From the NCBI GenBank assembly GCA_003990765.1, contig RBNJ01000031.1, forward strand, positions 1 through 49,343: a stretch of 49,343 nt of DNA. The letters are read 5' to 3'. The notes under the pieces are model-generated. The model made no database searches. It saw only the letters and a list, made by a program, of their open reading frames with translations, and was not told where the DNA came from. The DNA comes from Jimgerdemannia flammicorona. Lineage: Eukaryota. The position numbers and the translations under genes are program-made. Below are positions 64 to 39,743 of this stretch, in pieces. Position 1 is the stretch's first letter, and every line of letters begins with the position of its first letter.

Positions 64-98
<35 letters not shown>
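1..98 (+). mobile_element. 3' end and polyA tail of non-LTR retrotransposon (LINE family L-1), inserted into the 5' LTR of Gypsy A1
   Basis: GGGAGGGTTTTGGCCTATATAGTCTAGGTTCCCTTCCAATAAAA...GAGTCCATT followed by 32 A (67-98). The same 3' end occurs at ~37274-37351 (+) and ~14926-15030 (-). LTR-A sequence resumes at 99. Confidence 0.8.
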
Positions 99-100
<2 letters not shown>

Positions 101-235
101 ATAACCAACTGTGAGTCATTGTGACTACAGTACAAGCATCCTGAGGAATATAAAAGAAGGATCAAGAAACTGCAGTAACAGTAATCAACAAGACTCATCA
201 ATCTCAAAATAGCTCAAAGACTTACTACAAATAAA

Positions 236-1045
236 ATATCTGCTGCTCAACAAATCTCAAGGTCAAGGAACCACCAAGGTATCTCAGTCAAAAAAAGAAT
301 ATTCCAAGACATCAGAAGAGCTATGAGGACCTGCTCAAGAAGGACTCCTAGTGTTGACCTGGGTACTGCAGACCCTTATCACTTTATCCTCTACTACCAA
401 GAAATGGAAATAAGGATCATCATTGCCACTAAATGCCTCCAAATGTGGCAGAAGTATGAAATAGAAAACCTTCTCTACCAGGAGTTCCCACAGACCAGCA
501 CTCAAGAGCTACAAGATGCCACTTCTATAGATATATGTAAAATGAGGATAGCTAAGAAGATCTATCAGATCTTCAGACATGTACCATGGTTGATCTCTAA
601 CTTAGAGTATATTAGAGTCTCAGATTTCAGAGACCTGTTATCCTGCCATATCAATATACTAGAAGCCAGAGTGGCTACAGAAGCCCAGTCCACTATCACT
701 CTCAATAGTGATGAAGTAGAAGACTTCTGGTACCCCATCCTTTAGGACAACCCAGACCAATTCCTACAAGAGTTGATCTCAGTATTCCAAGGCCCAAGCA
801 TCCAGGTTAGACCTCTCTAAGACCCCACATTTGTTCTCTATTTTGTAGAAGAGAACCTCATAGACTGGAGAGCTCCAGACCTCCTTCCCACCACTAAATG
901 TGATGATATCATTGGTGATGATATCATCCTGTGTGACATCGAAGTATGCAAAAATGATGAATTCACAAACCTCATCTTCTTCAAAGATACCCTGACCTCT
1001 GATGATAAGAATGAAGCCCCCATGGTCCTGAACTTTCTGCTTTAA
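236..1045 (+). pseudogene. LTR-encoded accessory ORF (family A), decayed copy
   Basis: 810 nt, colinear with the intact 30937-31746 ORF. Start ATG has become ATA and there are internal stops; the ORF-track fragment 323-745 is in this frame. Confidence 0.8.
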
Positions 1046-1068
1046 GTTCTTTATTATTCTGAATAACA

Positions 1069-1278
1069 CCAATACTAGCATTCTGATGTAATACTGAATA
1101 ATTCCAGCACTGACATTCTGATGTAATACTGAATATTTCCAGCACTGACATTCTGAGGTGATGAAAAATTGTACCAGTACTAGCATTCTGATGTAATACT
1201 GAATAATTCCAGTATCAGTATTCTGAGGTGACGCAAAATTGTTCCAGCACCAGTATTTAATGTGACACTGAATTATAC
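1069..1278 (+). repeat. Tandem ~35-bp repeats within LTR-A
   Basis: Unit ~CCAGCACTGRCATTCTGATGTAATACTGAATAATT; 6 units here, 5 at ~10806-10980, 3 in each A2 LTR. Confidence 0.85.
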
Positions 1279-1631
1279 CAGTATCCTGAATCTGTACAAC
1301 TATCAGTACTGACCCTAGAACTTAGTAGTTTTAGTTATTGGAATTTATATTTAGCTTTATATCTTAGCAATTATTGAATTATATTTTGTATAAATATCCC
1401 TCTTATTTTCTCTGAAATAAAATCAGTTCTTCTCAGTGCAATATATACACTTTCTTGCAAGCAATCTAAGAGATAATAAGATAGTTTAAAGAAGAAGTTT
1501 GAGGACTATAAGACCTTAGGAAGGTACTCTAATAAGAACTTACTTATAACAAACTTGTAGTTAGTCTAAGAGATATACCTTGAAGAGAATCTGGTATATT
1601 TGAAGGACTCAGCAACCACTATATGACAACT

Positions 1632-6506: not shown

Positions 6507-6847
6507 GTAGGATTGGTGGAATATTGGCTATTTGTGTTTGAGGAGGGGCAGCAGATGAGACTGCAGGAGAAGGTTTTAAGATGGGAGGAGCTGTTAGAGG
6601 ATCTGATAACTGGATGGTGGATAGGTTGGGGTCCTTCAGGGGGGCAATGGTGTGGTTTGGTGGCAAGGATATGCAAACAGAGTAGTGGGAGAGTGGGGAT
6701 TGTTTTTGATAGAGTAGTGTTTCATTGAGAAGGGGTAGGGGAGAGGGGCCCCCTAGGGGGATTGGATAGGGGGTGGGTTCACTGTACTTATATGGGATAG
6801 ATGGGTGTAATAAAGGAAGAGTCCAAGTGACTATAAAAAAAAAAAAA
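6507..6847 (+). mobile_element. 5'-truncated non-LTR retrotransposon 3' fragment (LINE family L-2) in A1 pol
   Basis: 18-bp TSD ATGAAGTTGATACTRGTG (6489-6506, 6848-6865), AATAAA and polyA tail, G-rich body. Absent from A2. Confidence 0.88.
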
Positions 6848-8170: not shown

Positions 8171-9418
8171 ATGAATAAAGAGCTATACTATGGATTAATC
8201 AGCTACCTTGAGTAGTGGAAGATACCCAATCACCTCAAATCCTGGATAATCACCATCATCAACCAGACTTGAAAACAGTTTGAACTAGACAACACTACAC
8301 TCAGAAAAGGAGGAAAGCTAGTAATATCCAAATACAAGAAGTATCAAGTAATGAAGGAAGTATATGAACAAGGACACCTAGGAGGAACCAACATATATAA
8401 TAAGGCAAGAAGAACTATATAGTGGCTCAAGATGGAAGAAGACCTGTGCCAATTTGTCAAAGGGTGTAATAAGTGCCAAAAACAGAAACAAGATCAATAA
8501 GATCAGGCACCCAGGTCATCAAGAATTGAGCCTATCCCCTTCTATCACATCACAATAGATATCATTAGGCCACTACTAGTAACACTATCAGGAAACCACT
8601 ATATTATAGTTATTGTAGACCTCTTCACCAAATGGATAGAGACAGGAGTATTACAAGAAGCCAATGCCCTCTCTATAGCTGACTTCCTGCATCAAGAAAT
8701 TATCTACCACTACAAGACACCAAAGCAAATCACAACAGACTGTGGCATGGAATTTGTCAATGGATTCTATGAGATAATGTATCAGAAATACAAGATCCAG
8801 TATATCAAGACCACCATATACCACCCTTAAGAAAATGGACAGACAGAGAGAACCAATAAGACCCTCAAGAATATCCTAGCAAAGATCTCAGAGACATATG
8901 AGAATTGGGATAACTATCTCTCAACCACCCTCTCTATTCTATGAGATATATGGTTACAGAGCACACACTTTACTCCAAGGGAGCTGCTCTTCAGAGAAGA
9001 AGATTCTGATGGAACCTCAGCCACAAATCTAGACCTAACTTGGAGACAGATTGATGCAGAAATCTGGAGACTACACCAAATCAGGAAGAAGACTGAAGAT
9101 TATATCATCAAGTCACAAGTGCTGACAAGGAAGAATGTGGAAAAGAATCACAAGGCCCTAGAACCCATCTGAATTGGAGAAAAGGTTCTACTGTATCAAA
9201 ATATAGTAGAAGCCTTATGGTCACAAAAACTAGAGTCTAAATAGGAAGGACCCTTCTATGTGCAAGATATCAAGAAAACTATCTTCTGGCTTAGAAAAAT
9301 CTCAGGGACTATACTGCCTACTATGATACATAGAAACAGACTCAAGAAGTACTATGAACCTATACAAGAGAAGCAAAACATGATGATTACCTGTGAGGTT
9401 CTAGTCTATAAATCGTAA
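8171..9418 (+). pseudogene. A1 integrase, separate ORF
   Basis: Own ATG at 8171 in the +1 frame. GHLGG...CNKCQ zinc-finger region, IDIIRPL/VDLFTKW, ITTD, NGQTERTN. 1248 nt, same length as in A2. Confidence 0.88.
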
Positions 9419-9731: not shown

Positions 9732-11332
9732 TATAACAGTGACCTCAGAATGATGACATCAGTACAGGAGACAGTCTTTTCTTGTAAGCCACCAGATTGG
9801 AGCACAAGAAGATTATACAGCATATGAGATGAGCAATGATAACCAACTATGAGTTATTATGACCACAGTATAAGCATCCTGAGGAATATAAAAGAAGGAT
9901 CAAGAAACTACAGTAATAGCAACCAACAAGACCCATCAATCCCAAAATAGCTCAAAGACTTACAATAAACAAAATGCCTACTGCCTACCAAACCTCAAGG
10001 TCAAGGAACCACCAAGGTACCTTGGTTGAAGAAAGAGTATTCCAAGACATCAGAAGAGCTATGAGGACCTGCTCAAGAAGAACTCCTAGTATCGACCTGA
10101 GTACTACAGACCCTTATCACTTTATCCTCTACTACCAAGAAATAGAAACAAGAATCACCATTGCCACCAAATGCCTCCAAATGTGGCAGGAGTATGAAAT
10201 AGGAAACCTCCTCTGCTGAGAGTTCCCACAGGCCAGTACTCAAGAGCTATAAGATGTCACTCTCATAGATATATATAAAATAAGGACAGCTAAGAAGATT
10301 CATCAGATCTTCAGGCATGCACTATGGTCAATCCCCAACTTAGAGTATGTTAGAGTCTCAGATTTCAGAGACCTATCATCCCACCATATCAATGCACTAG
10401 AAGCCAGAGTGGCTACAGAAGCCCAGTCCACTATCACTCTCAATAGTGATGAAGTAGAAGACTTCTAGCACCCCACCTCCAGGACAACTCAGACCAATTC
10501 CTACAAAGGTTGATCTCAGTATTCCAAGACCCAAACATCCAGATTAGACCTCCCCAAGACCCCACATTTGTTTCCTATTTTGTGGAAGAGAACCTCATAG
10601 ACTGGAGAGCCTCAGATCTCCTTTCCACTACTGAATGTGATGATGTCATTGGTGATGACATTATCCCACACAATATTGAAGTATGCAAAAATGACAAATT
10701 TATGGACCTCATCTCCTTCGAAGATACCCTGACCTCTAATGATGAGGATGAAGTCCCCATGGTCCTGAACTTTCTGCTCTAAGTTCTTTATTATACTGAA
10801 TAATACCAGCACTGGCATTCTGATATAATATTGAATAATTCCAGTACTGGCATTCTGATATAATACTGAATAATTCCAGTACTAGCATTCTGATATAATA
10901 CTGAATAATTCCAGCACCAGCATTCTGAGGTGATGCAAAATTGTTTCAGCACTATTATTTGATGTGATACTGAATTATACCAGTATCCTGAACCTGTACA
11001 ACCATCAGTACTGATCCTGGAACTTAGTAGTTTTAGTTATTGAAATTTATATTTAGCTTTATATTTTAGCAACTATTGAATTATATTTTGTATAAATACC
11101 TCTCTTATTTTCTCTAAAATAAAGTCAGTTCTTCTCAGTTCAATACATATACTTCCTTACAAGCAATCTAAGAGATAACAAGACAGTTTAAAGATAAGAA
11201 GTTTGAGGACTATAAGACCTTGGGAAGGCACTCTAATAAGAACTTACTTATAACAAACTTGTAGTTAGTCTAAGAGATATACCTTAAAGAGAATCTAGTG
11301 TATTTGAAGGACTCAGTAACCATTATGTGACA
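9732..11332 (+). repeat. 3' LTR of A1 (1601 bp)
   Basis: TATAACAGTG (from TGTAAC)...ATGTGACA, followed by ATAG. Confidence 0.93.
9974..10782 (+). pseudogene. LTR-encoded accessory ORF (family A), decayed copy
   Basis: Fragments 9974-10219 and 10510-10782 match the 269-aa ORF; one 1-nt deletion plus stops. Confidence 0.8.
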
Positions 11333-11531
11333 ATAGATATATTTTTAAGTTTTCACTATATTGCAGTAGAGTTGTGAAAATAAGAGCTTTTATTACATTA
11401 AAATTATTATTAAGAGTAGTATATTCTAGATATATAATATTCTTCTTTTTATAATTGATATTACTAGATTGTTCTGAGATTAGTGTCTTAGAGTGATATA
11501 TTATTTAGAGTAAAATATTTTAAACATATAT

Positions 11532-13429: not shown

Positions 13430-14489
13430 GATGTGGGGAAAGGTATATCTTGAGGTGATTGATATGTACTAGTGTCTTCAGAGTTCATCTATCCATGCTT
13501 CTTAAATAGATGCTGGTTCCTCTAATGTTGTACACAAGATAAGGTTCTTCCCATTTGGGCTCCAATTTGGTAGCAAAGTTTGTTTCAATCATACTTCTCC
13601 AAACTAGTACTTGATCTCCAATCTTGATCTCCTGATCCTTCTATTTCTGGTTATAATACTTCTTTTGTCTTTCTTGGACTTTGATAATCTGATCTCGGAC
13701 TTGATTATATAACTGTTCTACTTTTTTGAGAAGGTCTCCAAGATTCTCATGGTCAGCAGTTCTGGTCTTAGCAAACATCATTTCAAATGGTTTTTATCTG
13801 GTGGAGGCAGTAGGGGTGTTCTGAATTTCCCATAGGATCTTGGGTAAGCAGAGGTCCCAATTGGTAGAATTGACTTAAGCAAGTCCTTTCTTGATGATCT
13901 GATTCATTCTTTCTATTATACCGTTGGTCTGAGGGTGATATGATGTGGTCTATTTGAGGTGAATCTTATGAATTTAGGCATAACTTATGATTATGTTATT
14001 GATGAATTCTGTGCCTTGGTCAGAGATGAGTTCTTCTGGGGGTCTATATCTGAGTGTGAGTCCATAGAGAAGACCTATAATAGTTAAGGCATCTGTGATT
14101 TCTATTGGAAAAGCCTTGGGCCACTTGGTTAGATATTCCACAAATATAAGGATGTATTTGTTTCTTCTTGGTGTAACTGGTAGAGGTTCAATTATATCTA
14201 TTTCCTATCTCTAAAAGATATTGTCTGATAGTGCAATTGGTTATAGTGGTGCTTGATAGTTCTTCCTTCCTTAGTACTTCTGGTAGGTGTCACATTTCTT
14301 GAGTATGTCCTGGACTTATGTTCTAAGATTGGGCCAATGTTGGTGTATTGTTCGCAGCTTCTTTTCTACATTTGCCTATCCTTAGTGGGCTTTCTGATGT
14401 TCTTTTCAGATGAGATCTTCTTATGCCTTGATGGTCTGAGAAGTTTTCTTTAGGGTATAGTTCCTTGGGACACCCTTCTTCTAGTTCAT
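13413..14489 (-). pseudogene. Element C integrase, separate ORF
   Basis: ATG at 14489, HQKAH...HWP...KCDT(Y)Q zinc finger, IDIIEPLP, VEYLTKWP, SDQGTEF, YHPQTNG, KLEPKWEEPY. Confidence 0.85.
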
Positions 14490-14921
14490 TGAGACTGGCA
14501 GGAAAGTATATCAACATTGTTGTGAGCTTTCTCTGCTTTGTGGATAATAGTGATTTTGTAATCCTAAAGGATAAGGATCCAGCAAACTAGGATTCCAGTG
14601 GGTTTCTTGCAGTTGAATAGCTATTTGAGAGCTGTATGGTCTGTGATCAGGGTGAATCTTTTTCTGATGAGATAATGCTTGAACAGGGTGACCACCCATA
14701 TGACTGCAAGATATTCCAGTTTGGTGCTATCATAGTTCATTTACTGCTGATTGGTAGCTCTACTTGTATAAGCTATTATATGGTACTGTTGATCAGATCC
14801 TTCTTGGGCTAGAACTGCTCTGAGACCACCTTTAGAAGCATCTGCATACAAGACAAATGGCTTCTGTAGATTGGGGCACACAAGGATTGGTGCTACAGTC
14901 ATGTGGTTCTTGAGTTCTTTG

Positions 14922-14925
<4 letters not shown>

Positions 14926-14964
<39 letters not shown>

Positions 14965-17524: not shown

Positions 17525-17935
17525 TCTGAACTTCCAAATCCTTTTGCTTGTCTTGTCCCTTCAGTCAATTTGGAGACTTCTTGTAATTGTGAGGTCCTGA
17601 TCTTTGTGAAGACTGCTTGGGCAATCTTCTGTCCTCTAATGATTTGGTGCTATTCTGTACTGCTATTGTGTAGGATAACCTTGATTTCACCTATATATCC
17701 TGGGTCAATGATTCCTCCTTCTATAGTTATTCTTTATCTGGCAACTCCAGATCTTGAGGTTAGTTGGATGTAAGCTCCTGGGGGTGGCTATATGGCTAAT
17801 CTAGTTCTGATTATTAAGGTTTTTCCAGGTTTGATAGATTCATCCTCCAGACTGTGAAGATCATACCCTATATCTTCTGGGTGGGTTTTGGTCAGGGGTT
17901 TGGCCTTGGGATGTAGTAGGGCATACGGGGCAATG
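17525..17935 (-). pseudogene. dut: dUTPase domain within element C pol
   Basis: LLHPKAKPLTKTHPEDIGYDL...TSRSGVA...EGGIIDPGYIGEIKV...QKIAQ...RQAKGFGSS. Confidence 0.88.
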
Positions 17936-20900
17936 TCCTTGCTGAGTTCAGGCTATCCTAGGGCTGAAGCTCCACTAGCAGAGAGTCTCCAGGCTCTGAG
18001 GTTGAGGTGTGGTCATCTGGCTCCAGTAGAGGGGTCTCAGAGATAGTTAATTCCTCTTCTTTCTATAGGGTCTAGGGCTTCTATGAAGTTGGTGGCATCT
18101 TCTACCCATCCTTGGTGGGTTATATATCTGATGAGGGCTAGGATATCTTCTCCTAAATTATAGATCTTGAGGGTTCTTCTTCCTGGCTTTTTGGTCTGAC
18201 TTTTTTGGATCTGGCTTTGGTTATCTCCTCTCTTCAAAGTGTGAACTGCAACATCATGACTGAGATGGATCTTCTGATGCCTGCAGTCTCAGTAGTCTGA
18301 GTGTCTTCTATAGTTATAATATCCCATTGCTTGGAAATGATGTTCCCAGTTATTGATATCTTATTGTTTTGGGAATCAGTACCCATCTTGGTCATAAGTG
18401 GGTGGAAGAGTAGACAAGGGATATACTTCTGTCTAGGTGAAGAGGTCTTGTCCCCTGAATCAGCTTTGTAACTTAGTAGTAACTTCTTAGAAGATAGTTG
18501 ACTATGCAACTGTATTCAGGGGTTCTGGTCTCTGGAGTCTCTGTCTCTCCTATTGGTCTAATAAATAGCACTGATAGCAGTAGTCTTGGGGAGAGTGGAA
18601 GACTATTTGGTGTGGATATCTTTCTAGCTGAAAAGCCTTTTCTTGGTAAGTTTCTTTCTTGGGGATAATGATGATTATACTGGATTCTTCTGTATTCCAA
18701 GGGTCATTGTCTTCAGGTGGTGTCTAGTAAGGATTATCCCAGAGAATGAGTTCAGAGACCTCTTCTTCTTCAGGTACTTCTTGTTCAGAAACTTCTTGGT
18801 CAGAAGTTTCTTCTTCCTTGGATGATTCTTAACCCCAAATTGCTTGTACTTCTGCAGCTTCAGTTGCAGGTATTTCTGAAACATGTTTGTATTTCTTCTT
18901 CTTTCTGCACTCTGGGCAGGCTGTGCCAGGTGATTTCCTTGTTCCCATGATCTTGGAGGAATGCTTAGGACACTTGTGTCTCTTGAGGCAGGTAGGACAT
19001 CCTTTGATTTCTCCTGCAATGGCTCTAATGATGATAGAGATGGTGTTCTTGGCCCACACATTGTCTTCTAGTCTGTTATCCACCAGGTTAATTTGGGGAT
19101 TGAGTCTGGAATCATTTTCATCTTCAGATTCTTCCTCTTCTTCTGTGGTAGATTCTTCACTGCTAGCATATTCCTCCTGAATAGTGACCTTCTTCTTCTT
19201 CTTTGATTGCTCATAGCTAGTAACCTTAACTCTGTACTTCTTACCTTAGTAGTCAAACTTGAGTACTTGTTGACCAATATCAACAACTGCATTCATTTCC
19301 TTCATCCAGTTGATACCAAGAATTATGTCATAGATAATAGCTTCTATGATAATAGCTTTGGAGATGGAGAACTGAATGTGTCCAAGAGAGATAGTAATAT
19401 TTCATACTTCTCCAAAGGGTTGAGTTCAGGCTCCATCTGCTACTATGATACTGAGATTAGATGGTCCATCAATAGGCTATTGGAGGGTGTCCAGGAATCA
19501 TTTGGCAATAACACAGATAGCTACTTCTGTATCTATGAGAATTTTCACTTTTTGATCTCTAATATCTCCATATAAATAGGTACTAAAATATCTTTCTGCA
19601 GCCTGAACAGGAATGGAAGCTGGTTCTTACTGTGGGATGGGAACTTGGCCCATGCTAGACCTGGTAGTTCTCAACAATTTGTTTCAGACTCCAGCTGATA
19701 TTAGTTGCAAGAACTACAGGAGAGAGACTTCTATCTTGGCCTCTTAAATCTTCTGCCAAGCTTTATTACAGATGTCTCTAGGCATGGTCTTTGGGGTATA
19801 CTTCTTCTTGGGCTTTGAAGTAGCAGATTCCCATTCTTTTTATTCCATCTCTTCATCCTCTGATAGTAGCTCATTTGTCTCAGGGACAAAAGGTGAAGGA
19901 GTCTGGAGAGGTGTTTCTACTTGTTCTTCTTCATGTTCTTCATATTTCTCTTAGATAATTCTTCTGCTGATATTTCTGGATGGTCTTCCTACAGGTCTCT
20001 TTCTTTTCTCTACTGGATAGACTATTTTCTGAGTGATAATATTGGTAGAGTACAAGTCCAGGTCACTGTAGTCTTCACTGTTACTTGTTTCCTCAAAATC
20101 TTCAATAGGATGAGCTTTAGTCTTCTTATACTGGGTATCACTTCTTTAGTTTGATAGTTCTGAGTCCCTTTGGTCACTTCTTTTATTGTCACATTCAGTG
20201 GCATAGTGTCCGAATTGTCCATAGTGAAAGCATTAGACTTGGGCTCTGTCTTAGACAGAGTATCTTCTTTCTTCTTACTGGTAATTTCTGTTATCTCTTG
20301 GTGAATAACCTTGGCTCCTCTGTGGTAGATATCCTCTGTTATCTTGGTAGCTCTGATTTTTATATGTGGTGAGTTTTTCAATCTGTCCAACCAATCAGTC
20401 CAACTTGGAGCTAAGGTCTTGGATTTTGTTTCTGTTCTTCTTTCCTTCTTTGGCTGGCCTTCTTTCTTCAGATCTTTCTTGTTCTTGAAGGAGTCCTTGT
20501 AGGGCTTTGACCAGGATGTCTTCTTTATTTTCTTTCTTGTCATAATTACTCCAAGTAGTTCCTTGTCTGATATCAAAGAATCTCTAGACTGCATCTACTT
20601 GCTCTTTAGACCTTCTGATGCCTAGAGTATAGACATGCTGGGCAATGTTTGGAGGAATTCCATTAATGAAGATCATTGGACCTATAATGTCCTGGTTGGT
20701 GCCAGCAGCATGCATTCTCTTCTGAATTCTTGTGAAGAAGACTCTAAGTGATTCTCTAAGATTCATCTTCATCCCCATAATGGATTTCTGAGCCTTGTAG
20801 TGGGTTTCATTTTCTGCATACTTTTCAATGAGCCAGTGGACCATGGCTATATATTCTAGCTCATAAGATATTGCTGCTTAAATCTGTCTTGCCAATTCTG

Positions 20901-21254
20901 AATCAGGGTTATCTACTATTTGGTAGAAAATTCCTCTGGTTGGTTCTCTGAGCTGAGTCTTGTAGATGGCAATTTTTCTTTCATCTGAGAGATTCCTCAA
21001 GACTGCAATTCCTTCAATTCCATTAAGGAATTCTCTGGAGTCTTCCTCTAGGTATCCTGCAAAGGTTGGTAATAAGGTAGCCATTTCTTTGTCACTTTCT
21101 TCTAATTCTGGTTCTGGTTCAGATTTAGATTCAGATTTACTTTCTGAGCTGTTACTGGAGATAGAGGTACTTGAGTATCCTGAGGATGGTGTTCTGGATC
21201 TTGAATGAAGTAGAATGAGCCTAGGTATTCTTGTAGAAGCTACTTCCAACTCTA

Positions 21255-22776
21255 TTTTTCTTATTATTCTTTTTATTAACTATCTATAACATGCTACATA
21301 TCCTCATACAATATCAGTAGTCCCATTCTACCCCAATCTCAACCCACTCCTAGCCTTGTACCTTTAGGATGTAAGTTGCGACCTCACTACTCAAGTAACT
21401 AGATCCTCCTACCCAGTCTGCCCCACTCAGTAGGTATGGGTTGTAAGCCCCAACCACCTCAAGTACTTGGTATCTAGTGCACCTGACCTACCCCTATTAG
21501 TACCTCCTGTCTTGCCCATCTAGCCTATCTTGCCTGCCCATGTTGCCCATATTACATATCATCTTGCCATCTTACCCATCTTGCCCATCTTATCTGTCTT
21601 GTCTATCTTGCCCACCTGTATTGTCCATGTTGTCCATATTGCTCATGTTATCTACCCATGTTGCCTGTGTTGCCCATATTGCCCATCTTGCCTGTGTTGC
21701 CTGTATTGCCCATGTTACCTGTCTTGCCCATCTTGTCTATCTTGCCTGTCTTGCCCACTCATATTGCCTGTATTGCCTGTATTGCCCATATTGCTCATGT
21801 TGCTTGTATTGCCTGCCTGTGTTGTCCATGTTGCCCATGTTACCCATGTTGCCCATCTTGCCTGTCTTGCCCATCTTGTCTGCCCATGTTACCTGTATTG
21901 CTCATGTTGCCCATGTTACCCATGTTGTCCATTTTGCCTGTTTTGCCTATTTTGCCTATTTTGCCCATGTTGCCTGTCTTACTGTCTACCCATCTTGCCC
22001 ATGTCACCCATCTTGCCATCTTGCCCATCTTGCCCATCTTGCCTGCCCATGTTGCCCATATTGTCCATATTGCCTGTATTGCCTGTATTGCCCACCTGTG
22101 TTGCCCGTGTTGCCTGTATTGCCCACCCATGTTGCCCATGTTGTCTGTGTTGCCTGCCCATATTACCCATATTGCCCATATTGTCCATTTTGCCCATTTT
22201 GCCCATTTTGCCCATTTTGCCTGTCTTGCCTATATCACCTGTCTTGCCATCTGCCCATCTTGTCCATGTTGCCCATCTTGCTATCTTACCATCTTGTCTG
22301 TCTTGCCTGTCTTGCCCATCTTGTCCATCTTGCCTGTCTTGCCTGTCTTGCCCATCTTGCCCATCTTGCCCGTCTTGCCCATCTTGCTCATATTGCCCAT
22401 CTTGTTGTCTTGCTGTCTTGCCCATCTTGCCTATCTTATCCATCTTGCCTGCCCATGTTGCCTATGTTACCTATATTGCCCATGTTGCCCATGTTGTCTA
22501 TATTGCCCATGTTGCCTGTGTTGCCCATATTGCCCATTTTGCCCATGTCACCTGTCTTGCCATCTGCCCATCTTGCTCATATCACCCATCTTGCCATCTT
22601 GCTGTCTTATCTGTCTTGCCTGTCTTACCTATGTTGCCCATGTTGCTCATATTGCCTGTATTGCCCATATTGCCCATATTGTCTATATTGCCTGTAGCCT
22701 ACCAAACTATTGTGACTGGTAAGGTAGTAGAGGATTATTATACTGCTTGAGAGCTTGGTGGTTGAAGCAGGCTGGT
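21255..22776 (-). mobile_element. Retroposed insert carrying a minisatellite, in the gag leader of element C
   Basis: Perfect 14-bp TSD TACTTCCAACTCTA (21241-21254, 22777-22790); A-rich tail with AATAAA on the minus strand at 21255-21280. Confidence 0.82.
21508..22695. repeat. Degenerate 9-bp minisatellite (~1.2 kb)
   Basis: Units TTGCCCATC / TTGCCCATG / TTGCCTGTC / TTGCCTGTA. All three + frames are open for purely compositional reasons. Confidence 0.95.
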
Positions 22777-23467: not shown

Positions 23468-24999
23468 TGTAACAGTGACCTCAGAATAATGACATCAGCA
23501 TAGGAGACAGCCTTTCCTCACAAGCCACTAGATCGGAGCACAAGGAGATTATATGGTATATGAGATAAGCAATGATGACTAACTGTAAGTCATTGTGACC
23601 ACAGTACAAGCATCCTGAAGAATATAAAAGAAGAATCAAGGAACTGCAGTAGCAGCAACCAATAAGAACCACCAATCCCAAAATAGCTCAAAGACTTACC
23701 ATAAATGAAATATCTGCCACTTACTAAACCTCAAGGTCAAGGAACCACTAAGGTATCTCAGTTGAAGAAAGGATGTTCCAAGATATCAGAAGAGCTATGA
23801 GGACCCACTCAAGAAGGACTCCTAGTGTCAACCTGGGTACTGCAGATCTCTATCACTTTATCCTCTACTGCTATAAAATGGAAACAAGGATCACTATTGC
23901 TACTGAATGCCTCTAAATGTGGCAGGAGTATGAAATAGGAAACCTCCTCTACCAGAAGTTCCCACAGGCCAGCCCTCAAGAGCTACAAGATGCCACTCTC
24001 ATAGATATATATGAGACAAGAACAGCTAAGAAGATCCATCAGATCTTCAGGCATGCACCATGATTGATCCCCAACTTGGAGTATGTTAGAGTCTCAGATT
24101 TCAGAGACCTGTCATCCCACCATATCAATGCACTAGAAGTCAGAGTGGCTACAGAAACCCAGTCCACTATCACCCTCAATAGTGATAAAGTAGAAGACTT
24201 CTGGCACCCTATCCTCCAGGACAACTCAGACCAATTCCTGCAAGGGTTGATCTCAGTATTCTAAGGCCCAAGTATCTAGGTTAGATCTCCCTAAGACCCT
24301 ACATTTGTCCCTTATCTTGTAGAAGAGAAACTTATAGACTGGAGAGCTCCAGATCTTATTCCTGATTTCCCCACCACTAAATGTAATGATGTCATTGGTG
24401 ATGATGTCATTCCACACAACATCAAAGTATGCAAAAATGATGAATTCGCAGATCTCATCTCCTTCAGTGATGATGATGATGATGATGAAGCCCCCATGGT
24501 CCTGAATTTTCTGCTCTAAGTTCCATGTTACACTGGATAATGCCAGTACTGATATTCTCATGTAACATTGAATAATACCAGCACTGGTATTCTGAGGTGA
24601 CACAAAATTGTTCTAGCACCAGTATTCTGATGTGACACTGAATTACACCAGTATTCTGAATCTATACAACCATCAGTGCTGACCCTGGAACTTAGTAGTT
24701 TTAGTTATTGGAATTTATATTTAGCTTTATATCTTAGCAACCATTGAATTATATTTTGTATAAATACCCCTCTTATTTTCTCTGAAATAAAGTTAGTTCC
24801 TCTTAGTGCAATACACACACTTCCTTGCAAGTAATCTAAGAGATAATAAGACAGTTTAAAGATAAGAAGTTTGAGGACTATAAGATCTTGGGAAGGCACT
24901 CCAATAAGAACTTGCTTATAACAAACTTGAGTTAGTCTAAGAGATACATCTTGAAGAGAATCTGATATATTTGAAGGACTCAGCAACTACTATGTAACA
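23468..24999 (+). repeat. 5' LTR of A2 (1532 bp)
   Basis: TGTAACAGTG...ATGTAACA. Confidence 0.93.
23710..24519 (+). pseudogene. LTR-encoded accessory ORF (family A), decayed copy
   Basis: 810 nt, colinear with 30937-31746; start ATA and in-frame stops only. Confidence 0.8.
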
Positions 25000-25118
25000 A
25001 CTTGGTGCCCATTGGCTAGTGATTCAAGATGAATCCCTCACTTTCAAGCTAAAAAATGAACAACCCCACAACAACTATCCTGACTACAAGAGTCACCTCT
25101 GTAAGAATTCAAGACAAG

Positions 25119-28100
25119 ATAGAAATGCATCCCCCCACATTCTATGGATATACTACTGAAAAGTCAATCTTGACCTTCATTGAAGACTTTGAACAATTCG
25201 CCACTATATGAGCTCTTGGTGTGGATGCTCAATTGGCCCTTCTACTAGTTAGCCTCAGAGGACCTGCCAGAGACAAGTTCAATATAGCCATCATTGCTGA
25301 TGCTGATGCAGCCAAACTTGCCAACATGAAGGCCTTCCTCAGAACAATATATTATACTGAAGAGATCAAGCAAGCTCTCAAGGATCAACTCAATACTATC
25401 TGCCAGAGACTTAGTGAAGATCCCAACTCATTCTAAATCTGAATCTGCCACTAGATTATCTTGGCTGGCTATAATGACCACCTCAAGAAACAAATAGCAG
25501 ATTTAACTTTCCTCAAAGGAGTTCACCCTGAAATTGCTCTAGCAATCCAGTATACCTCAGCTACACTGACCCTTGATCAGAAAGTGGTCTTTGCACAGAG
25601 ATATTGGACTGTCAGACACCCTGCCAAACACTCAATGGAGAAAATAACTGGCATCAAGATGGAGCCATCAAAGCCAACTAGTATCTTACCTGCCACAGTT
25701 GTAAATAGACAACAAACCCCACCTACCCCCAAGACAATCAAAGCTGACCCAGTGGAAGAACTTGCCAAGCAGTTCACCAAGATGACTACATACCTTGGTG
25801 ATATTGTTAGAGAAGTCTGAAGTGCCAACAGGAGACCAGTGCAGAGATTTGCAGCTGCTACAGAAGAACACAATATTACATGCTTCAGATGTGGAGAAGA
25901 AGGCCACTATGCAAAGAATTGCATGACTGAAACAAGATGCAAAGCCCAACCAAGTAATGCTAGCAGAACTAGAGAACAAACCAATGCAGTAGTCATCGAG
26001 GATATTGATGACACTGATGATGAAGAATACTATAAGGAGCTTGAATTCTACCCTGCTACTGAAGGTACCAGAATCTGGTCCAAGCCCTATGACAAGAAGA
26101 GCAACAGCAAGCCAGTTGGAAGACCAATGAAGACCCCAGCTATCACTATTCAAAGTAAGACTCAATCTAAGGAGATTGATCAAGACATGGAGTTAGATGA
26201 AGCTGCTCATCAAATTATTGAAGACACTACTCCAGTCTCAGGAGAAAGTGAAAGCAAGAAGGAACAGAAGCTGTGCAAGACCAAGATCTATCAGTATGAC
26301 ATCTACAAGGACCTCAAGGAACAGAAGGTCAATGCTACTTTTGGATAACTAGCTGAAGTCCCTGCCTTCAGACAGCAGTTGAGAGTAGGACTTGCAACTA
26401 CTGCCAAGAATCAAGAGTACAAGATTGTAGAAGCTCACAATGCACAGGAAGAATCTGAGAACTTAGGTGAAGAATCCGAAGACCAGCACAAGACATCAGC
26501 CTATACCCTATGTCAGATTGAAGACTATATCTTTAATACCATCATTGATACTAGTACTGGAGGATATCTCATGAGCAAGAAGACAATTAACCACCTAGAT
26601 TGGGATATTGAAGAGTCCACCAAGATGGTCTATGTTACAGTAGATAGTATACAAGCTACCCCCCTTGGTAAAATCTGAGAAGTCTCCATCAAGATAGGAG
26701 GAGCTACTATCTCAGTAGATATGATTGTTACAAGCACCACTAACTATGATATCCTCATTGGCAACCAATGGCTCCACATGGCCAAGGCCATCATTGACCT
26801 CAATGCCCAGAAGATACAGATCAACTATAGAGGAAGAAAGGTATGAGTCTCTATCAATGTCTACAAAGAAGTTCTACCAGACATAGAGGAAGGAGATGAA
26901 GAAGACACAGAGGTCTTCATGCACTTAGTGAATAAGAATAAGAATAAGATACCTAAGCTCACAGATGAGCAGTGGTACAACAAGATCATTGATAGCTATG
27001 CCCCTCAAGAAAGATGCCCCTATGGTACTAAGATATACTGCTCTGAACACCTGAATGACTACTGGTCCTGTACCAATGAAGTCAGGAAAATCCACTAACA
27101 GAAATATGAGCAAGAAGCTGCCAAAGCAAAAAGAAAAGCCAAAGAAGATGATCAGCCCCCAGAGCTCCAAGCTGACAGTGATAATGAGGAGGAACAAGAA
27201 TTAGATATCACTCTCAAGGTCAAGAAGTTTCACCCCAAAGCCAAGATCCCAGAATATAAGACTGAAGGAACCATAGGAATAGACCTTGCTAGCATTCAAG
27301 ATACTACCCTCAAACCACAAACCACCACCCTACTTGATACTGGAATTGGAGTCAAGCTGCCAGAGAACCATATCAGAATTATCAAGACCAGGAGCAGTCT
27401 GGCCAAAAGCAAAATCTCAGTTGAAAGAGGAGTAATTGACCCTGATTACACTGGTGAGATCTTCCTCATAGTCAGAAATCACAACCACACCACCCCCTTC
27501 GAAGTCAAGAAGCATGACAGGATTGGCTAGATGCTGATCTACGAAATCAAGAAGCCCAAGATCATTGAAGCCATCGAACTCATCAAGACCAAGAGAGGAG
27601 AACAAGGCTTTGGATCTACTGGAAGAGGAGCCTATGCCGCTACCAAGATTACCAAACTTAAGTACAAGAAAGACAAGGACCAGAACAAGCACACATATAT
27701 CATTGGAGAAAACTTTCCCCTGGAGGAACAGCTTCTCAAGATCCTGCACCGGAATGAAGGAGTACTTGCTATAGACTTCAGGGATATCCACAATCAAGAA
27801 CCTAAGTACTACTATGAAGTTGACACTGGTGATATCAAGCCCATCTACCAGAAAGCCAGACCCATACCACCTGCCTACAGAGAGTGGCTGTGAGCAGAAC
27901 TCAAGGAAATGGAAGAAGCCAGGATCATCAAGCAAGCTATCAGCCCCTGGGCCTCACCCATTGTCCTTGCCCCAAAGAAAGGAAGCAAGCCTGGAGAGTT
28001 TGTACCAAGACTCTACATTGACTACAGGAAGCTCAATGCCATCACCAAGAAGGATAGGCAGCCCTTGCCAAATATTCAAGAAATTCTTACCACTCTTGGA

Positions 28101-29141
28101 AGTGAAGCCAAATACTACACTACCTTGAATCTGTTCTCAGGCTTCCATCAGATTGGTCTCACTCAAGATACCAGTGAGAAATCAGCCTTCATTACACCTG
28201 ACGCCACCTATATCTACCTGTGAATGCCATTTGGAATGTGCAATGCCCCAGCAAGTTTTCAGCAAATGATGAACAGAGTCTTCAGCAACAAGATTGGAAA
28301 ATGGCTCTTTGTCTATGTTGATGATATAATCATCTTCAGCAATACTGCACAGAAACATATCAATCATATACAGCTAGCCCTCAAGAAGCTCAAGGAGTAT
28401 GGCCTCTATATCAAGCCCAAAAAATACAAGTTTGCAGCTCAAGAAATCACCTACCTAGGACATCTCATCAACCAGACTGGAATCCACACAGACTCCATGA
28501 AGATCGAGGCTGTTGCCTACCCAAGACCCAGAACAACTATAGAAGTCCATGCCTTCCTTGGACTGGCCAGCTACTACAGAAGATTCATCAAAGGATACTC
28601 CAACATTGCAGCACCTATCTACAAGCTACTGAAGAAGGAGACCAAATTCGAATGGACCAAGGAGTGCTAAGAAACCTTCAATGAACTCAAGACCAGGTTG
28701 ACCCAAGTATCTATCCTCAGAAGACCAGACTGGAACCTAGAATTCATCCTGCAGACAGATGCAAGTGCTATAGGACTTGGAGCAGTCCTAGCTCAGAAGA
28801 AAGATGGACATGAATATGTCATCTCCTATGTAAGCCAAGGTACCTGTAGAGCAGAACAGAACTATGAGTCATGCAAGCTTGAATGCTTAGCAGTAGTTTG
28901 GGCAGTAGACAAGTTCCACTACTATCTAGCTGGAAAATACTTCACTATTCAAACAGATCACTCTACTCTTGCCTGGCTATTCCACACTCTGAACCCCAAA
29001 GGAATATATGCCAGATAGATCTATAGGCTACAAGAGTATGACTGTACTGTCAAGCACCACTCAGGAAAGATCAACACCAATGCTAATATACTCTCAAAGA
29101 CACCCTGAAACACCCCCATCAAGACTATTCAATATGAATAA
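25119..29141 (+). pseudogene. pol: A2 gag-PR-dUTPase-RT-RH, one reading frame broken only by stops
   Basis: ORF-track fragments 25221, 25461, 25839, 26379, 27531, 27909, 28224 and 28698 share one frame. Motifs CFRCGEEGHYAKNC, IIDT(S), RGEQGFGSTG, SPWASPIV, YVDD, LQTDAS. Confidence 0.95.
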
Positions 29142-30381
29142 GGAGCTATACTATAGATTAATCAGCTATCTTGGGCAGTAGAAGATGTCCAACCACCTTG
29201 AACCTTGGACAATCAACATCATCAACTAGACTTAAAAACAGTTTGAATTAGACAACACTATACTCAGAAAAGGAGGAAAGCTAGTAATACCTGAACACAA
29301 GAAGTATCAAGTAATGAAGAAAGTACATGAGCAAGGACACTTAGGAGGAACCAACACATATGATAAGGCAAGAAGGACCATGTGGTAGCCTAAGATAGAA
29401 GAAGACCTGTACCAATTTGTCAAAGGGTGTGACAAGTACCAAAAACAGAAACAAGATCAGCAAGACCAGGCACCCAGGTCATCAAGAATTGAGCCTATCT
29501 CCTTCCACTACATCACAATGGATATCATTGGACTACTACCAGTAACACTATCAGGAAACTATTATATTATAGTTATTGTAGACCTCTTTACCAAATGGAT
29601 AGAGGCAGGAGCATTACAAGAAGCCAATGCCCTCTCTATAGCTGACTTCCTGTATCAAGAAATCATCTGCTACTACAAGACACCAAAGCAAATCACAACA
29701 GACCATAGAACAGAATTTGTCAATGGATTCTATGAGATAATGTATCAGAAATACAAGATCCAGCACATCAAGACCACTGCATACCACCCTCAAGGAAATG
29801 GACAGACAGAGAGAACCAATAAGACCCTTAAGAATATCCTAGCGAAGATCTCAGAGACATATGAGAATTGGGATAACTATCTCCTAACTGCCCTCTCTGT
29901 CCTACAAGACATATGGTCACAGAGTACACACTTTACCCCAAGAGAGCTGCTCTTTGGAGAAGAAGATTCTGATGGAACCTCAGCCATGAATCTAGACCTA
30001 ACTTGGAGATAGGTTGATGCAGAAATCTGGAAACTACACCAAATCAGGAAGAAGGCTGAAGATTACATCACCAAGTCACAAGTACTGATAAGGAAGAATA
30101 TAGAAAAGAATCACAAGGCCCTAGAACCCATCTGAATTGGAGAAAAGGTTCTACTGTATTGAAATATGGTAGAAGCCTCATGGTTGCAAAAACTGGAGCC
30201 CAAATGGGAAGGACCCTTCTACATACAAGATATCAAGGGAACCACCTTCTGACTTAGAAAAATCTCAATGACCATACTACCTACTATAGTACATAGGACC
30301 AGACTCAAGAAGTACTATGAATCTATACAAGAAAAGCAAAACATAATGACTGCTCATGAGGTTCTAGTCTGTGAATCATAA
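29134..30381 (+). pseudogene. A2 integrase, separate ORF
   Basis: ATG at 29134; HEQGHLGG...CDK(Y)Q; core 29518-30012 MDIIG...DLFTKW...TAYHPQGNGQTERTN; KLEPKWEGPF. Confidence 0.92.
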
Positions 30382-30694
30382 CAGCATGTCTCATGACCAG
30401 CAGGCTATCTGTCTGGACCATTCTCTAATAGATATGGCACTGGCAACTACTCATCTATGAGACTTTTGAAGTCAGAGGAGTTCGAACCATCAACTAATTG
30501 GTCAAGATCAGAATCAGACTCTTGCTCTATATAAAGAGAGCAACCCTTCACCATCATGCCAAAATACAAAGGGAAGATACCAGCCCATAAACACCACTTT
30601 TTGACCCCTTGCCAGAGGTTATGGGATCAGCAAATTTTTCAAGATTGGACCAATGAATAAGGACACTCAAGAAGATTCTTATTCAGGAGAAAGA

Positions 30695-32216
30695 TGTAAT
30701 AGTAACCTCAGAATGATGACATCAGCATGGGAGACAGCCTTTTCTCACAAGCCACTAGATTGGAGCACAAGGAGATCATATAGTATATGAGATGAGTGAT
30801 GATGACCAACTGTAAGTCATTGTGACCACAGTACAAGCATCCTGAAGAATATAAAAGAAGGATCAAGGAACTGCAGTAGCAGCAACCAATAAGAACCACC
30901 AATTCCAAAATAGCTCAAAGACTTACCATAAATGAAATGTCTGCCACTCACCAAACCTCAAGGTCAAGGAACCACCAAGGCATCTCAGTTGAAGAAAGAA
31001 TATTCCAAGATATCAGAAGAGCTATGAGGATCTACTCAAAAAGGACTCCTAGTGTTAACCTGGGTATTGCAGATTCCTATTACTTTATCCTCTACTGTCA
31101 TGAAATAGAAACAAGGATTACCATTGCTACCGAATGCCTCCAAATGTGGCAGGAGTACAAAATAGGAAACCTTCTCTGCTGGGAGTTCCCACAGGCCAGC
31201 CCTCAAGAGCTACAAGATGCCACTTCTATAGATATATGCAAGACAAGAATGGCTAAGAAGATCCATCAGATCTTCAGGCATGCACCATGGTCAATCTCCA
31301 ACTTGGAGTATATTAGAGTCTCAGATTTCAGAGATCTGTCATCCCACTATATCAATGCACTAGAAGCCAGGGTGGCTACAGAAGTCCAGTCCACTATCAC
31401 CCTCAATAGTGATGAAGTAGAAGACTTCTGGCACTCTATCCTTCAGGACAACCCAGACCAATTCCTGCAAGGGTTGATCTCAGTATTCCAAGACCCAAGC
31501 ATCCAGGTTAGATCTCTCCAAGACCCCACATTTGTCTCTTATTTTGTAGAAGAAAACCTCATAGACTGGAGAGCTCCAGATCTTATTCCTGATTTCCCTG
31601 CCGCCAAATGTGATGATGTCATCAGTGATGACATCATCCTGTACAACATTGAAGTATACGAAAATGATGAATTCACAGATCTCATCTCCTTCAGTGATGA
31701 TGATGATGATGATGAAGCCCCCATGGTCCTGAATTTTCTGCTCTAAGTTCTATATTATACTGGATAATGCCAGTACTAGTATTCTTATATAATACTGAAT
31801 AATGCCAGCACTGGTATTCTGAGGTGATGTGAAATTGTTCCAGCATCAGTATTCTGATATGATACTGAATTATACCAGCATCCTGAACCTATACAACCAT
31901 CAGTGTCAACCCTGGAACTTAGTAGTTTTAGTTATTGGAATTTATATTTAGCTTTATATCTTAGCAACTATTGAATTATATTTTGTATAAATACCCTTCT
32001 TATTTTCTCTGAAATAAAGTCAGTACAATATATACACTTCCTTACAAGCAATCTAAGAGATAACAAGATAGTTTAAAGATAAGAAGTTTGAGAACTATAA
32101 GATCTTGGGAAGGCACTTCAACAAGAACTTGCTTATAACAAACTTGAGTTAGTCTAAGAGATACACCTTGAAGAGAATCTGGCATATTTGAAGGACTCAG
32201 CAATCACTACATGATA
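30695..32216 (+). repeat. 3' LTR of A2 (1522 bp)
   Basis: TGTAATAG...ACATGATA, followed by TSD ATAG. Confidence 0.93.
30937..31746 (+). CDS. LTR-encoded accessory protein, 269 aa, unknown function (intact copy)
   Basis: Uninterrupted ATG-to-TAA ORF entirely inside the LTR; TATAAAAG ~85 nt upstream; predicted helical N-terminal half and acidic C-terminus; colinear in all four LTR-A copies. Confidence 0.8.
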   Translation: MSATHQTSRSRNHQGISVEERIFQDIRRAMRIYSKRTPSVNLGIADSYYFILYCHEIETRITIATECLQMWQEYKIGNLLCWEFPQASPQELQDATSIDICKTRMAKKIHQIFRHAPWSISNLEYIRVSDFRDLSSHYINALEARVATEVQSTITLNSDEVEDFWHSILQDNPDQFLQGLISVFQDPSIQVRSLQDPTFVSYFVEENLIDWRAPDLIPDFPAAKCDDVISDDIILYNIEVYENDEFTDLISFSDDDDDDEAPMVLNFLL

Positions 32217-33211
32217 ATAGGTAATTTCTATATAGCATGATGATCTCTGTATAGTGCAGTAGATTTCTTATATAGGATGATCTTGGTGATATTTCTTATA
32301 TGGATTTGGCAGATAACTCGATTTGGCTAACTGGGAATTGTACCAGTGCAGTTTCTTCTATACTAGGCTCACTTGATGTAAATAACTTGGATGTCACAGA
32401 TTATTCCCAAATCAGTAGCTTTAACTGGGAATGCAGATAACTTGAAAATGGCAGATGATGTGGATTCTTCCTGAAATAGTGGCTCTCTGAGAATACTACT
32501 CAGGTAGTGTAAATTCTTTCTGAATCAGCAGCTTCAACTGGGAAATAACTTGGGTTCTTGACAAGCTACATTGAGACTGGTTTTGTTTGCATGAATAGAT
32601 TACTGTAAAGTTGTATCAAGGACTGGCTTGTGGTAAGAAAGATAGGCTCTCTGAGAATGTGGCAAATAACTCAAAAGACAGTAAAGTTCTTCCTTAAACT
32701 TGGTGGCAAACTTCAGGCTTATCTGGCAAGCAAACCAAAAATGGACCCATTCTTTATATCAGAAAGTGGACCAGAGTGAAAAGGGGAATCAATGCTCACA
32801 ATCTCCTAGTAGTGGCTGTAGAGTGGGTATTTCTCCTAAGTGTTGCAATCCTTTCTGGATCAAGTGGCTTTTGGCAGGTATATCTCTCAAAGTATAATAG
32901 GCAGACTTGTCTTTTGCTTTTGAATTCAGACTTTTGGACTGAGGTTTATTCACTCTTGTCTCTGAGGTAATTTATAAATTATGGTTACTATCTAGTTGCT
33001 ATATTGCTAATTATAGATCTACTATTTATAGCAAGTTGTACAGGTCCAGCACAAGTGTGCAGGTCATGTAGGTCCTACACAGATATACCTTATCTGGTAG
33101 TCTGGCTATTTATACAGTTTTTACAGTAATGGTTGCTGGTTACTATGCTGTATGTTCACATTATCTGGCTAAGATATAATTTGGGTAGTATATCTTGGTT
33201 TATCACAATAT

Positions 33212-37955: not shown

Positions 37956-39716
37956 TTAGAGATGGGAAAGAAGAGGGAGTATAGAGAGGGTAAGAGGGGA
38001 GGGAGGGATAAAGAGGAGAGAGAAGAGTAGAGTGAACAACAGACTATTCAACAGAAGCAAGCAGATCATGAATGATAGAAATAGGGAGGCATGATGATGG
38101 ACCATAAAGTTACCAAGAACCTGAATAGCAGATACCCAGTCAGAACAATGGGAGCAGCATAATGCAAGATGATGAGCCTCACCACAAATACATTCAAGAA
38201 GAGTATGATGAGGATGATTGGACAAGAAGTCAGGGAACTATTGGGAATGGGGAAAATATAAATAAACAATAGTTTGGAAAGGAGAAAGAGAAATGGAAAG
38301 GTTCAAAAAGGGAATACTAGTCTTACTGCACACCCAAGTAATAGAATAGTGGAGAGGGTAGATACCCAGAAATACACTAGGGATATCAATACCAGCAACA
38401 GCAAAGATGATAAAGTCATCAATGTATCAGCAAAAGAAGATATCCCCAGCCCAGAATGCAATAGAAAGAGGTGAAGAGAGATCACATAATACACACAGTT
38501 CATGGGCCAGGCCAATGAGGTTGGCAAGAGTGGAGACACAATTTGTTCCCATAGCAATACCAGAAGTCTGGTGAAAGGAGCCAAGAGCTGACTCAAAATA
38601 ATTAGAGCTGCAGATAAGGAGTATAAGCTCAATGATGGAAGCCAATGAGACCAGGGAGTCCAAAGGAAAGATAATGGAATCCAAGAAGTGAAGGCAATCA
38701 TCGATCTCATCAAAATAAATAGCAGTATAAAAGGAGGAGAAATCACCAGAGGCCAAATGGGAAAAATAGTGAATAGGCACAATGGTGGAGCAGAGAAGGG
38801 CAAGCTCCTGAGTATCATGAAGAATAGTATACTCAGGCCCAAGATGGTATTATAAGAGAGCTATCCAGGAGAGGAAGAAGCAGGATAACTACTTCAAAAT
38901 CTCAGTGGTAGGGGAACTATAAGCAGTCATAATGAGATGCCAAGCCAAAGTAGGCTTGTGAACTTTAGGAAGAGCATAGAAAACCAGAAGAGAAATATCT
39001 GGGGAGGACAAAGAGTCCTGGAAGAAGTTAAAAATGGGGTTCACAAATAGAGAATTCAAAAGTAATCTGGCATGAGCCAGAGAAACCTGAAGAAGAGTAA
39101 GAATCTCATCCAATCCAAGAGTGCTAGGCTTATAAGCCATGGCTTGGAAGAGGGCAGAAAGGCCATCAAGGTAGAGTGACTTAGGAATAAGTACAAAACC
39201 TTGATTCTTATCAGTGACTGTGAGCAAATGCATGAGCAATTGCTTGACTGATTTAAGCATGGTATGCATGGCATGGTCCAAAACTAAGTAAGAGCGAGCA
39301 TGTCTGGGAATGGACAGTGAGCAAGCCATGTTGAGGAATACACAGTGTGAAGAGACATTGAGAGGGGGGACCCAATTGCTGGGAACAAAATAGCAAGAGA
39401 GCATCTCACCATGATCTTGAAAGAAAATGGCAAGATCAAGAGCATAATGAAAACATATAAGATGAGCTGGATCAGTGAAGGAAAATTGTGAGAGAGTTAC
39501 AGGAAAAATGAAGTGAAGACCCAAGGATAAGGCAAAGACTTGAAGGGGAGAAAGGGGACAGTCAGTCAAAGAGAAAGGAGGACAAAAGTGTTCCAAGAGA
39601 AGAGTAAACCTGAAAGTTTGGGACAAGCAACTGGGAAAGGCAAAGGGGGGACAATATGAGGAACCACTCAGGGCACACCAGAAGCAATGATGGAATCTGA
39701 GAAGAGACAGGGACAT
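37956..39716 (-). pseudogene. Penelope-like reverse transcriptase
   Basis: TDKNQG, FYALPKVHKPTLAWHLI, GDFSSFYTAI, FHQTSGIAMGTNC, (R)YIDD, thumb SNHPHHTL...GEA(R)(R)LAL.CS. No GIY-YIG motif seen downstream. Confidence 0.88.
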
Positions 39717-39743
39717 TGGGGGAGAATTACACTGAGGGGAAGT

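Follow-up and report, generated by a model that had tools for sequence, protein, structure and literature searches.

Separation of integrase from pol in a Ty3/gypsy retrotransposon family of Jimgerdemannia flammicorona and its possible expression by termination-reinitiation

Two copies (A1 and A2) of a single long terminal repeat (LTR) retrotransposon, here called family A, were identified by self-comparison of a 49,343-nucleotide (nt) stretch of Jimgerdemannia flammicorona DNA (contig RBNJ01000031.1 of GenBank assembly GCA_003990765.1, positions 1 to 49,343 of the forward strand; hereafter the window). In both copies the open reading frame (ORF) that contains RNase H (RH) is closed by a stop codon, and the integrase (IN) is encoded in another frame from its own ATG close to that stop. 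Comparison with intact relatives argues that the RH/IN split is an inherited feature of family A and not damage, and its distribution among homologues argues that it is the trait of a clade. We regard the chances as about even that family A is a two-cistron Ty3/gypsy element whose IN is produced by termination-reinitiation at the AUG adjoining the stop of the upstream ORF (ORF1).

Based on its LTRs, domain set and domain order, family A belongs to Ty3/gypsy (Metaviridae). All features of the two copies lie on the plus strand. The LTRs are approximately 1.5 kb in length and 89-90.5% identical within pairs, those of A1 being located at 97..1629 and 9734..11344 (~89% identity) and those of A2 at 23468..25000 and 30695..32227 (~90.5% identity). 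Pfam matches in A2 comprised the zf-CCHC of gag (about 25878-25925), RVP_2 protease (about 26475-26822), dUTPase (about 27237-27623), the RVT_1 domain of reverse transcriptase (RT; about 28005-28463) and RT_RNaseH (about 28728-29039), followed by the Integrase_H2C2 zinc finger (about 29287-29454) and the rve core (about 29506-29790), which is the Ty3/gypsy order. The closest homologues were gypsy-type polyproteins. The usual Ty3/gypsy form, with IN as part of the Pol polyprotein, was found neither in the window nor in the intact relatives, where IN occupies a separate frame or ORF. No chromodomain, by which a chromovirus would be recognised, was matched in the window IN (P0001) at E <= 0.01 in Pfam. 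By eye only, TTGGTGCCC, which comes after the 5' LTR, was inspected as a candidate primer-binding site, and the flanks of A2 (TATAG and AATAG, with TGCAG at the paralogous empty site) were inspected for a target-site duplication.

The first-pass annotation had described an RNase H frame ending in ...KTIQYE-TAA and an integrase ATG 5 nt ahead of this TAA in the +1 frame, and both were found in A1 and in A2. The junction octamer ATGAATAA occupies positions 29134..29141 in A2 (IN ATG 29134-29136, ORF1 TAA 29139-29141) and 8171..8178 in A1 (IN ATG 8171-8173, ORF1 TAA 8176-8178). In A2, RVT_1 and RT_RNaseH were matched in the upstream frame, and Integrase_H2C2 and rve in the +1 frame. The ORF1 stop of family A is located 13 codons past the RNase H motif 'aDaLSR'. 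The octamer occurs seven times in the window against 4.4 expected and is not rare by itself; its significance therefore lies in its position and its conservation in relatives, and not in its sequence.

Neither ORF is open today. The earlier statement that everything upstream of the junction in A2 is a single frame is correct as regards homology, which runs unshifted from gag (~25029) to 29141 when translated with X at stops and searched with Pfam, but this ORF1 remnant (25029..29141) holds 16 premature stops, and that of A1 holds 18. An in-frame TGA is found in A2 at 29106, 11 codons ahead of the junction TAA. Likewise, the integrase had been said to run exactly 1248 nt in both copies. The spans are right (29134..30381 in A2, with the stop at 30379-30381, and 8171..9418 in A1, with the stop at 9416-9418), but each of these +1-frame remnants of 415 codons plus TAA contains eight premature stops. 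The 1248-nt span (415 codons and a stop) is exactly that expected from the intact relative P0355, a protein of 415 amino acids (aa), and the terminal TAA at IN codon 416 is common to A1 and A2. A1 has suffered additional damage, namely one frameshift, a nested insert of ~2 kb (2611-4651) and another of ~340 nt (6507-6847). The larger insert has a second copy, 85% identical, at 41700-43721, near the end of the window, and represents a further repeat family.

Intact members of family A keep the split. A protein database search recovered P0123 (433 aa), an intact IN that is 85% identical to that of the window. P0355, which belongs to the 90%-identity cluster of P0123, starts with MNKELYY and has the same end as the window ORF. 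The N-terminal extensions of P0123 and P0356 (447 aa) are not RNase H residues but result from reading the coding sequence of the RNase H C-terminus in the +1 frame. The extensions of P0123, P0124/P0357, P0149/P0382 and P0206 correspond to the +1 frame of N-A-(D/N)-A-L-S-R, and in each of them exactly 18 codons lead to the IN Met, the same as in the window.

Further copies were sampled as Logan contigs placed on positions 28400-30400 at >=82% likeness, from three soil-metagenome runs and one run labelled 'organism A'. The numbers of contigs placed were 1632, 294, 126 and 119, and all 30 bins were covered in four of four runs; the query-word share was at most 0.33 in every sequencing run, and none reached half. 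None of the five indel places listed in the four runs falls within 28713-29157, in listings that omit variants below 10% and from contigs that drop rare variants. The four contig records listed across the junction span it with no gaps. Base differences were mostly T or A in the window against C or G in the contigs, so that decay has gone further in the window copy than in those sampled; for example, the window TAA at 29233-29235 is TGG in the contigs. The view that the split is not random decay is thus borne out by the +1 arrangement of the intact P0123, P0355 and P0356, by a junction free of listed indels in four runs, and by a clade-wide distribution. The contrary outcome named beforehand, a continuous RH-IN frame in most copies, did not appear; the intact members are split.

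With regard to the upstream ORF, 32 proteins among 120 RT-RH homologues have no more than 45 aa after the 'aDaLSR' motif and lack IN, and all of the closest homologues are among these 32 split-type proteins. Three of them, P0022, P0027 and P0028, are intact gag-protease-dUTPase-RT-RH ORFs of 1263-1507 aa with tails of 13, 14 and 13 aa, respectively, compared to 13 aa in the window; another is P0094, from Rhizophagus clarus. On an RT-RH tree of 116 rows (FastTree, a quick method, with SH-like support only), the window grouped with P0022, P0027 and P0028 (support 98). The split label required six changes on this tree versus 29 for shuffled labels, and none of 500 shuffles was as low. Three isolated 'split' rows within fused clades are probably truncated proteins.

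With regard to the integrase, a search for proteins of similar length yielded more than 100 stand-alone IN ORFs of approximately 410-430 aa, which are 38-85% identical to the window IN; the best match of P0123 among longer (fused) proteins was 34% identical. A similar start is seen in P0222 of Rhizophagus irregularis, which is also a stand-alone IN but more distantly related. In an alignment of 104 rows, 76 proteins start at a Met aligned with the window ATG, six have this Met internally and 21 are shorter, while the one fused RH-IN protein has Ala in the Met column. Met is therefore present at the aligned start in 82 of 83 IN relatives, and, being internal in six ORFs, was not imposed by the gene caller. 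The residue following MN is K, R, N or S in 32 of 47 ORFs, whereas the background frequency is 0.246 (p 4e-10, a value overstated since the sequences are related). Such a third residue is what would be needed if a UAA or UAG of the pol frame overlapped the start.

Contig collections were also scanned. With the IN alignment, 12 loci were obtained from viral_contigs (<=31% identity) and 80 from genome_contigs (<=29% identity over most of IN, with one short piece at 39%), none of them in the clade. The metagenome scan with the pol alignment gave 80 loci, mostly ordinary fused gypsy elements. A usable split-type junction was found there only in locus L015 and in part in L050, L007 and L030 ending too soon or being decayed, and a regular-expression search of all loci for more IN starts found none.

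The geometry of the junction differs between lineages. In L050 the tail is also 13 aa long and GATGAATAA recurs; this is a partial case, since a stop follows eight IN codons and the contig ends. A second, unrelated Ty3/gypsy element of the split type, family B, was identified on the minus strand of the window (13700-21300). This element is heavily decayed, with remnants of dUTPase (about 17182-17649), RT (about 16151-16525), RNase H (14923-14501) and integrase (14489-13767). Its junction, CAATGAAC (14481..14497, minus strand), is also an overlap of the RNase H stop and the IN ATG. The RNase H frame ends ...DILSCQSQ-TGA (CAA-TGA, with TGA at 14488-14486), and the IN ATG at 14489-14487 overlaps this stop as ATGA, so that IN, which starts with MN, is in the -1 frame. 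For a further family, dynamic programming gave a single way of encoding both the RNase H tail of P0372 and the IN extension of P0378, with IN in the -1 frame, and its junction is accordingly predicted to be AAA-TGA with an overlapping ATG. In L015 the stop is located 10 codons past the motif and is followed by an AT-rich spacer of ~110 nt that contains a stop in the IN frame, and then by the IN ATG. A tight stop/AUG overlap is thus kept in two different frames and in at least three lineages. In L015, positions 1161-1194, the RNase H frame after LSR reads MMNENTAAAA-stop, in which 'MN.E' is like the conserved IN start of overlap-type relatives; this may be a relic or chance.

The first-pass annotation had left three mechanisms side by side: stop-restart translation, +1 frameshifting and a separate mRNA. 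Because the frame varies while the AUG stays fixed beside the stop, initiation at the AUG, by stop-restart or from a separate mRNA, is favoured over frameshifting. A distance between stop and AUG of at most ~20 nt is found in family A (AUGAAUAA), in family B (AUGA) and in the P0372/P0378 family (AUGA), and not in L015. In the mechanism proposed, ORF1 would be translated into Gag, protease, dUTPase, RT and RNase H and would terminate soon after RNase H. Ribosomes ending ORF1 would reinitiate at the AUG 5 nt ahead of the stop, and ORF2 would give a 415-aa integrase from its own conserved start. The product is predicted to be a free integrase, unfused to Gag-Pol and less abundant than Gag-Pol. 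From the architecture and its conservation, which are read directly, we infer the step of reinitiation, the relative amounts of the products and whatever route may take IN into particles.

Several points weigh against expression by reinitiation, or against the breadth of the case for it. The known examples of reinitiation after long ORFs require an upstream or downstream RNA element. The motif TGGGA (of calicivirus type, which may not fit the 18S rRNA of the host) was not found within 120 nt upstream of any of five junctions, and no stable local RNA structure was predicted at these (z -1.3 to +1.6), the upstream folds being unstable (z -0.57 and -0.80 for family A and -1.27 for family B). Since the window copies are decayed, a missing motif or structure is weak evidence against reinitiation. 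The L015 spacer of ~110 nt exceeds the ~30-nt reach of viral reinitiation (PMC10275272), and so at least some lineages must use another route, which is possibly general. At the DNA level, junctions come from three lineages, with one partial case (L050) and one deduced from proteins, and most of the more than 100 IN ORFs are known as proteins only. The proteins of intact copies are compatible with either TAA or CAA at 29139. Seven premature stops in ORF1 are common to A1 and A2, and the family yielded no intact ORF1 by which these could be recognised as convergent.

In the most serious rival, IN likewise forms its own cistron, but its translation is uncoupled from ORF1 termination and relies either on a dedicated mRNA, which could be spliced, subgenomic or started at an internal promoter, or on internal ribosome entry. 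We consider this possible, though less probable than coupled reinitiation. A conserved AUG suits any mechanism of initiation, and the AT-rich L015 spacer with its stops is more easily reconciled with independent initiation than with coupled reinitiation. In family A, the 60 nt that precede the AUG are A-rich, with only four to five G residues and without structure, and no motif resembling a termination upstream ribosomal binding site (TURBS) was found at the five junctions. It is the missing TGGGA, the missing structure and the long L015 spacer that make this rival a serious one. Against it stand the tight stop/AUG overlap, in two frames and at least three lineages, and the enrichment at the third codon for residues that allow an overlapping stop, since a free-standing mRNA needs neither. 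In addition, no GT is present in the 60 nt before the A2 junction and there is hence no obvious intron. An intron joining RH to IN was also considered and is disfavoured for the same lack of GT; it would, moreover, leave the conserved Met unexplained.

If ribosomes instead underwent a programmed +1 shift at GAA-UAA-G, as in antizyme or the Ty elements, the product would be a Gag-Pol-IN fusion and the AUG would be incidental. Integrase does lie in the +1 frame, +1 shifts are known to occur with a stop codon in the A site, and a fusion protein would settle the question of packaging. In Ty1 and Ty3, a +1 frameshift at defined heptamers between gag and pol produces a fusion protein, and family A shares with them a +1 change of frame between two ORFs. 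Family A differs from these elements in that gag and pol share one frame, the break separates RNase H from IN and the AUG has been conserved. Neither CTTAGGC nor GCGAGTT, the heptamers of Ty1 and Ty3, is present at the junctions. No stable downstream structure was predicted (z +0.45 and +0.38). A +1 shift would be useless to the sister lineages, in which IN is in the -1 frame or is preceded by a spacer with an in-frame stop, and it gives no reason to keep the Met found in 82 of 83 aligned IN starts, six of them internal. Frameshifting is therefore considered improbable.

A common origin of A1 and A2 in a single defective master copy or in a segmental duplication, with the frame break as an inherited but functionless 1-nt indel, is very unlikely. 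Both copies do share the junction and the seven premature ORF1 stops noted above, and the window provides only two copies. On the other hand, the split is kept by intact relatives and distributed throughout the clade, and junction indel variants are absent from the listings of the four runs. A2 is also embedded in another repeat of which an uninterrupted paralogue exists at about 11826-11834, and is for that reason taken to be a separate insertion.

The manner in which the two copies decayed also speaks against a defective master. The LTR pairs have diverged by 9.5% (A2) and 10.9% (A1), and A1 from A2 by 10.6-11.2% in their internal regions. Nearly all substitutions are transitions, with transition:transversion counts from 143:1 to 296:9 (about 30:1), the observed/expected (o/e) ratio of CpG is 0.06, and CpA/TpA is the commonest context of substitution. 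Gaps occupy only seven columns in ~5,700 aligned nt of A1 and A2; because indels are so rare, the shared frame break must already have been there at insertion. TGA and CAA are the two outcomes of deamination of a CGA codon, one for each strand, and if each copy had decayed independently, discordant and concordant sites would be expected at 2:1. The stop table showed TGA/CAA discordance at six sites and TGA/TGA at four, which comes near this ratio. Two shared stop sites have different codons in the two copies (TAA/TGA at 29233 and TGA/TAA at 26844), and the positions of the window IN stops are W or R in intact P0123. The pattern of stop codons is consistent with independent CpG decay of two once-intact copies, and A1 and A2 are most likely long-dead relics that were intact at the time of insertion. 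Repeat copies across the window show the same transition bias, CpG loss and preference for CpA to TpA, a signature resembling repeat-induced point mutation (RIP) or methylation-driven deamination.

A ciliate-type genetic code (table 6), considered because many of the in-frame stops are TAA or TAG and under which the ORFs do lengthen and the junction TAA would be sense, is scarcely credible and was rejected, since TGA is as common as TAA and TAG (9 of 19 and 4 of 10 flagged codons in the A2 translations), the RH frame still closes at 29106 and the elements stay broken, and intact relatives have W, R or Q where the stops stand.

Reinitiation after long ORFs has a recognised signature, namely a stop codon and a start codon that overlap or almost do so (PMC10275272). 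As in family A, a long ORF with a stop/AUG overlap precedes calicivirus VP2, influenza B BM2 and ORF B of the hypovirus CHV1 (UAAUG), the last indicating that reinitiation works in fungi (PMC10275272, PMC2699510). Viral reinitiation, like that proposed here, is indifferent to frame and predicts a low level of the downstream product (PMC10275272). Family A is unlike the viral cases in that no TURBS motif or structure was found and in having Gag-Pol upstream and integrase downstream.

Among retroelements, reinitiation is a route to LINE-1 ORF2. The second ORF of the non-LTR retrotransposon SART1 is expressed by stop-start coupling at UAAUG, as is proposed for family A (PMC10275272). Both of these differ from family A in having neither LTRs nor an integrase, and their split separates ORF1 from RT/endonuclease and does not fall within pol. 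The Caulimoviridae are reverse-transcribing relatives of Ty3/gypsy. In this family, which includes cauliflower mosaic virus, ORFs abut or overlap and reinitiation depends on the transactivator TAV (PMC10275272). They differ in needing this virus-encoded transactivator and in having no integrase, and no transactivator-like gene was seen in family A.

The remaining architecture of family A is familiar. A dUTPase between protease and RT was already described in gypsy elements of fungi (PMC2864245). PosPlaTy3-5 of Postia placenta and the elements of Phanerochaete chrysosporium and Tuber melanosporum have the same gag (CCHC), protease, dUTPase, RT, RNase H and HHCC + DDE integrase; they are described as having a single Gag-Pol ORF or separate gag and pol, and the passages on them make no mention of a separation of IN from pol (PMC2864245). 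The soil metagenomes with matching contigs, the Rhizophagus relatives and these fungal dUTPase-bearing elements suggest a soil fungus as the host. In the split-type proteins P0042, P0050 and P0089, a NUDIX domain (PF00293) is located N-terminal to the protease, where others have dUTPase; it seems that more than one kind of nucleotide-sanitising enzyme was captured within the lineage. In the literature searched, which covered subscription journals and Repbase thinly and so gives novelty weak support, no LTR element with IN split from pol or with termination-reinitiation was found, and the arrangement may have been noticed elsewhere already.

In a broader form the proposal is put forward with slightly less confidence than for family A itself. 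A widespread Ty3/gypsy lineage of soil eukaryotes, with named members in Rhizophagus, may make free IN by stop-restart at an AUG that abuts the Gag-Pol stop, in any frame. In the textbook scheme for retroviruses and LTR elements, integrase enters the particle as the C-terminal part of Gag-Pol, and a conserved lineage with integrase as a separate cistron would break this scheme. If the proposal is true, these would be the first LTR retroelements known to employ termination-reinitiation and the first to dispense with Gag-Pol as the carrier of IN into the particle, and IN would then need recruitment in trans or would work outside the particle. LTR elements would then join the short list of eukaryotic stop-start coupled ORFs, with a link to the polycistronic translation of caulimoviruses. 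Two questions become testable, namely by what means a retroelement controls its level of IN and how an IN that is free locates the cDNA. There is also a practical consequence, in that annotation pipelines expecting a fused pol would score such elements as frameshifted or defective.

Two other regions of the window contain long ORFs or retroelement sequence. Positions 21487-22722 are a tandem array with a 9-nt period, in which all three plus-strand frames are open for ~400 codons; their translations are of low complexity and rich in Leu, Pro, Cys and His, and coding is unlikely. On the minus strand, a GC-richer region at 38303-41008 contains other retroelement ORFs, which are rich in proline and leucine and have an RT-like motif, 'YALPKVHKP'; by eye, this retroelement is of a non-gypsy type.

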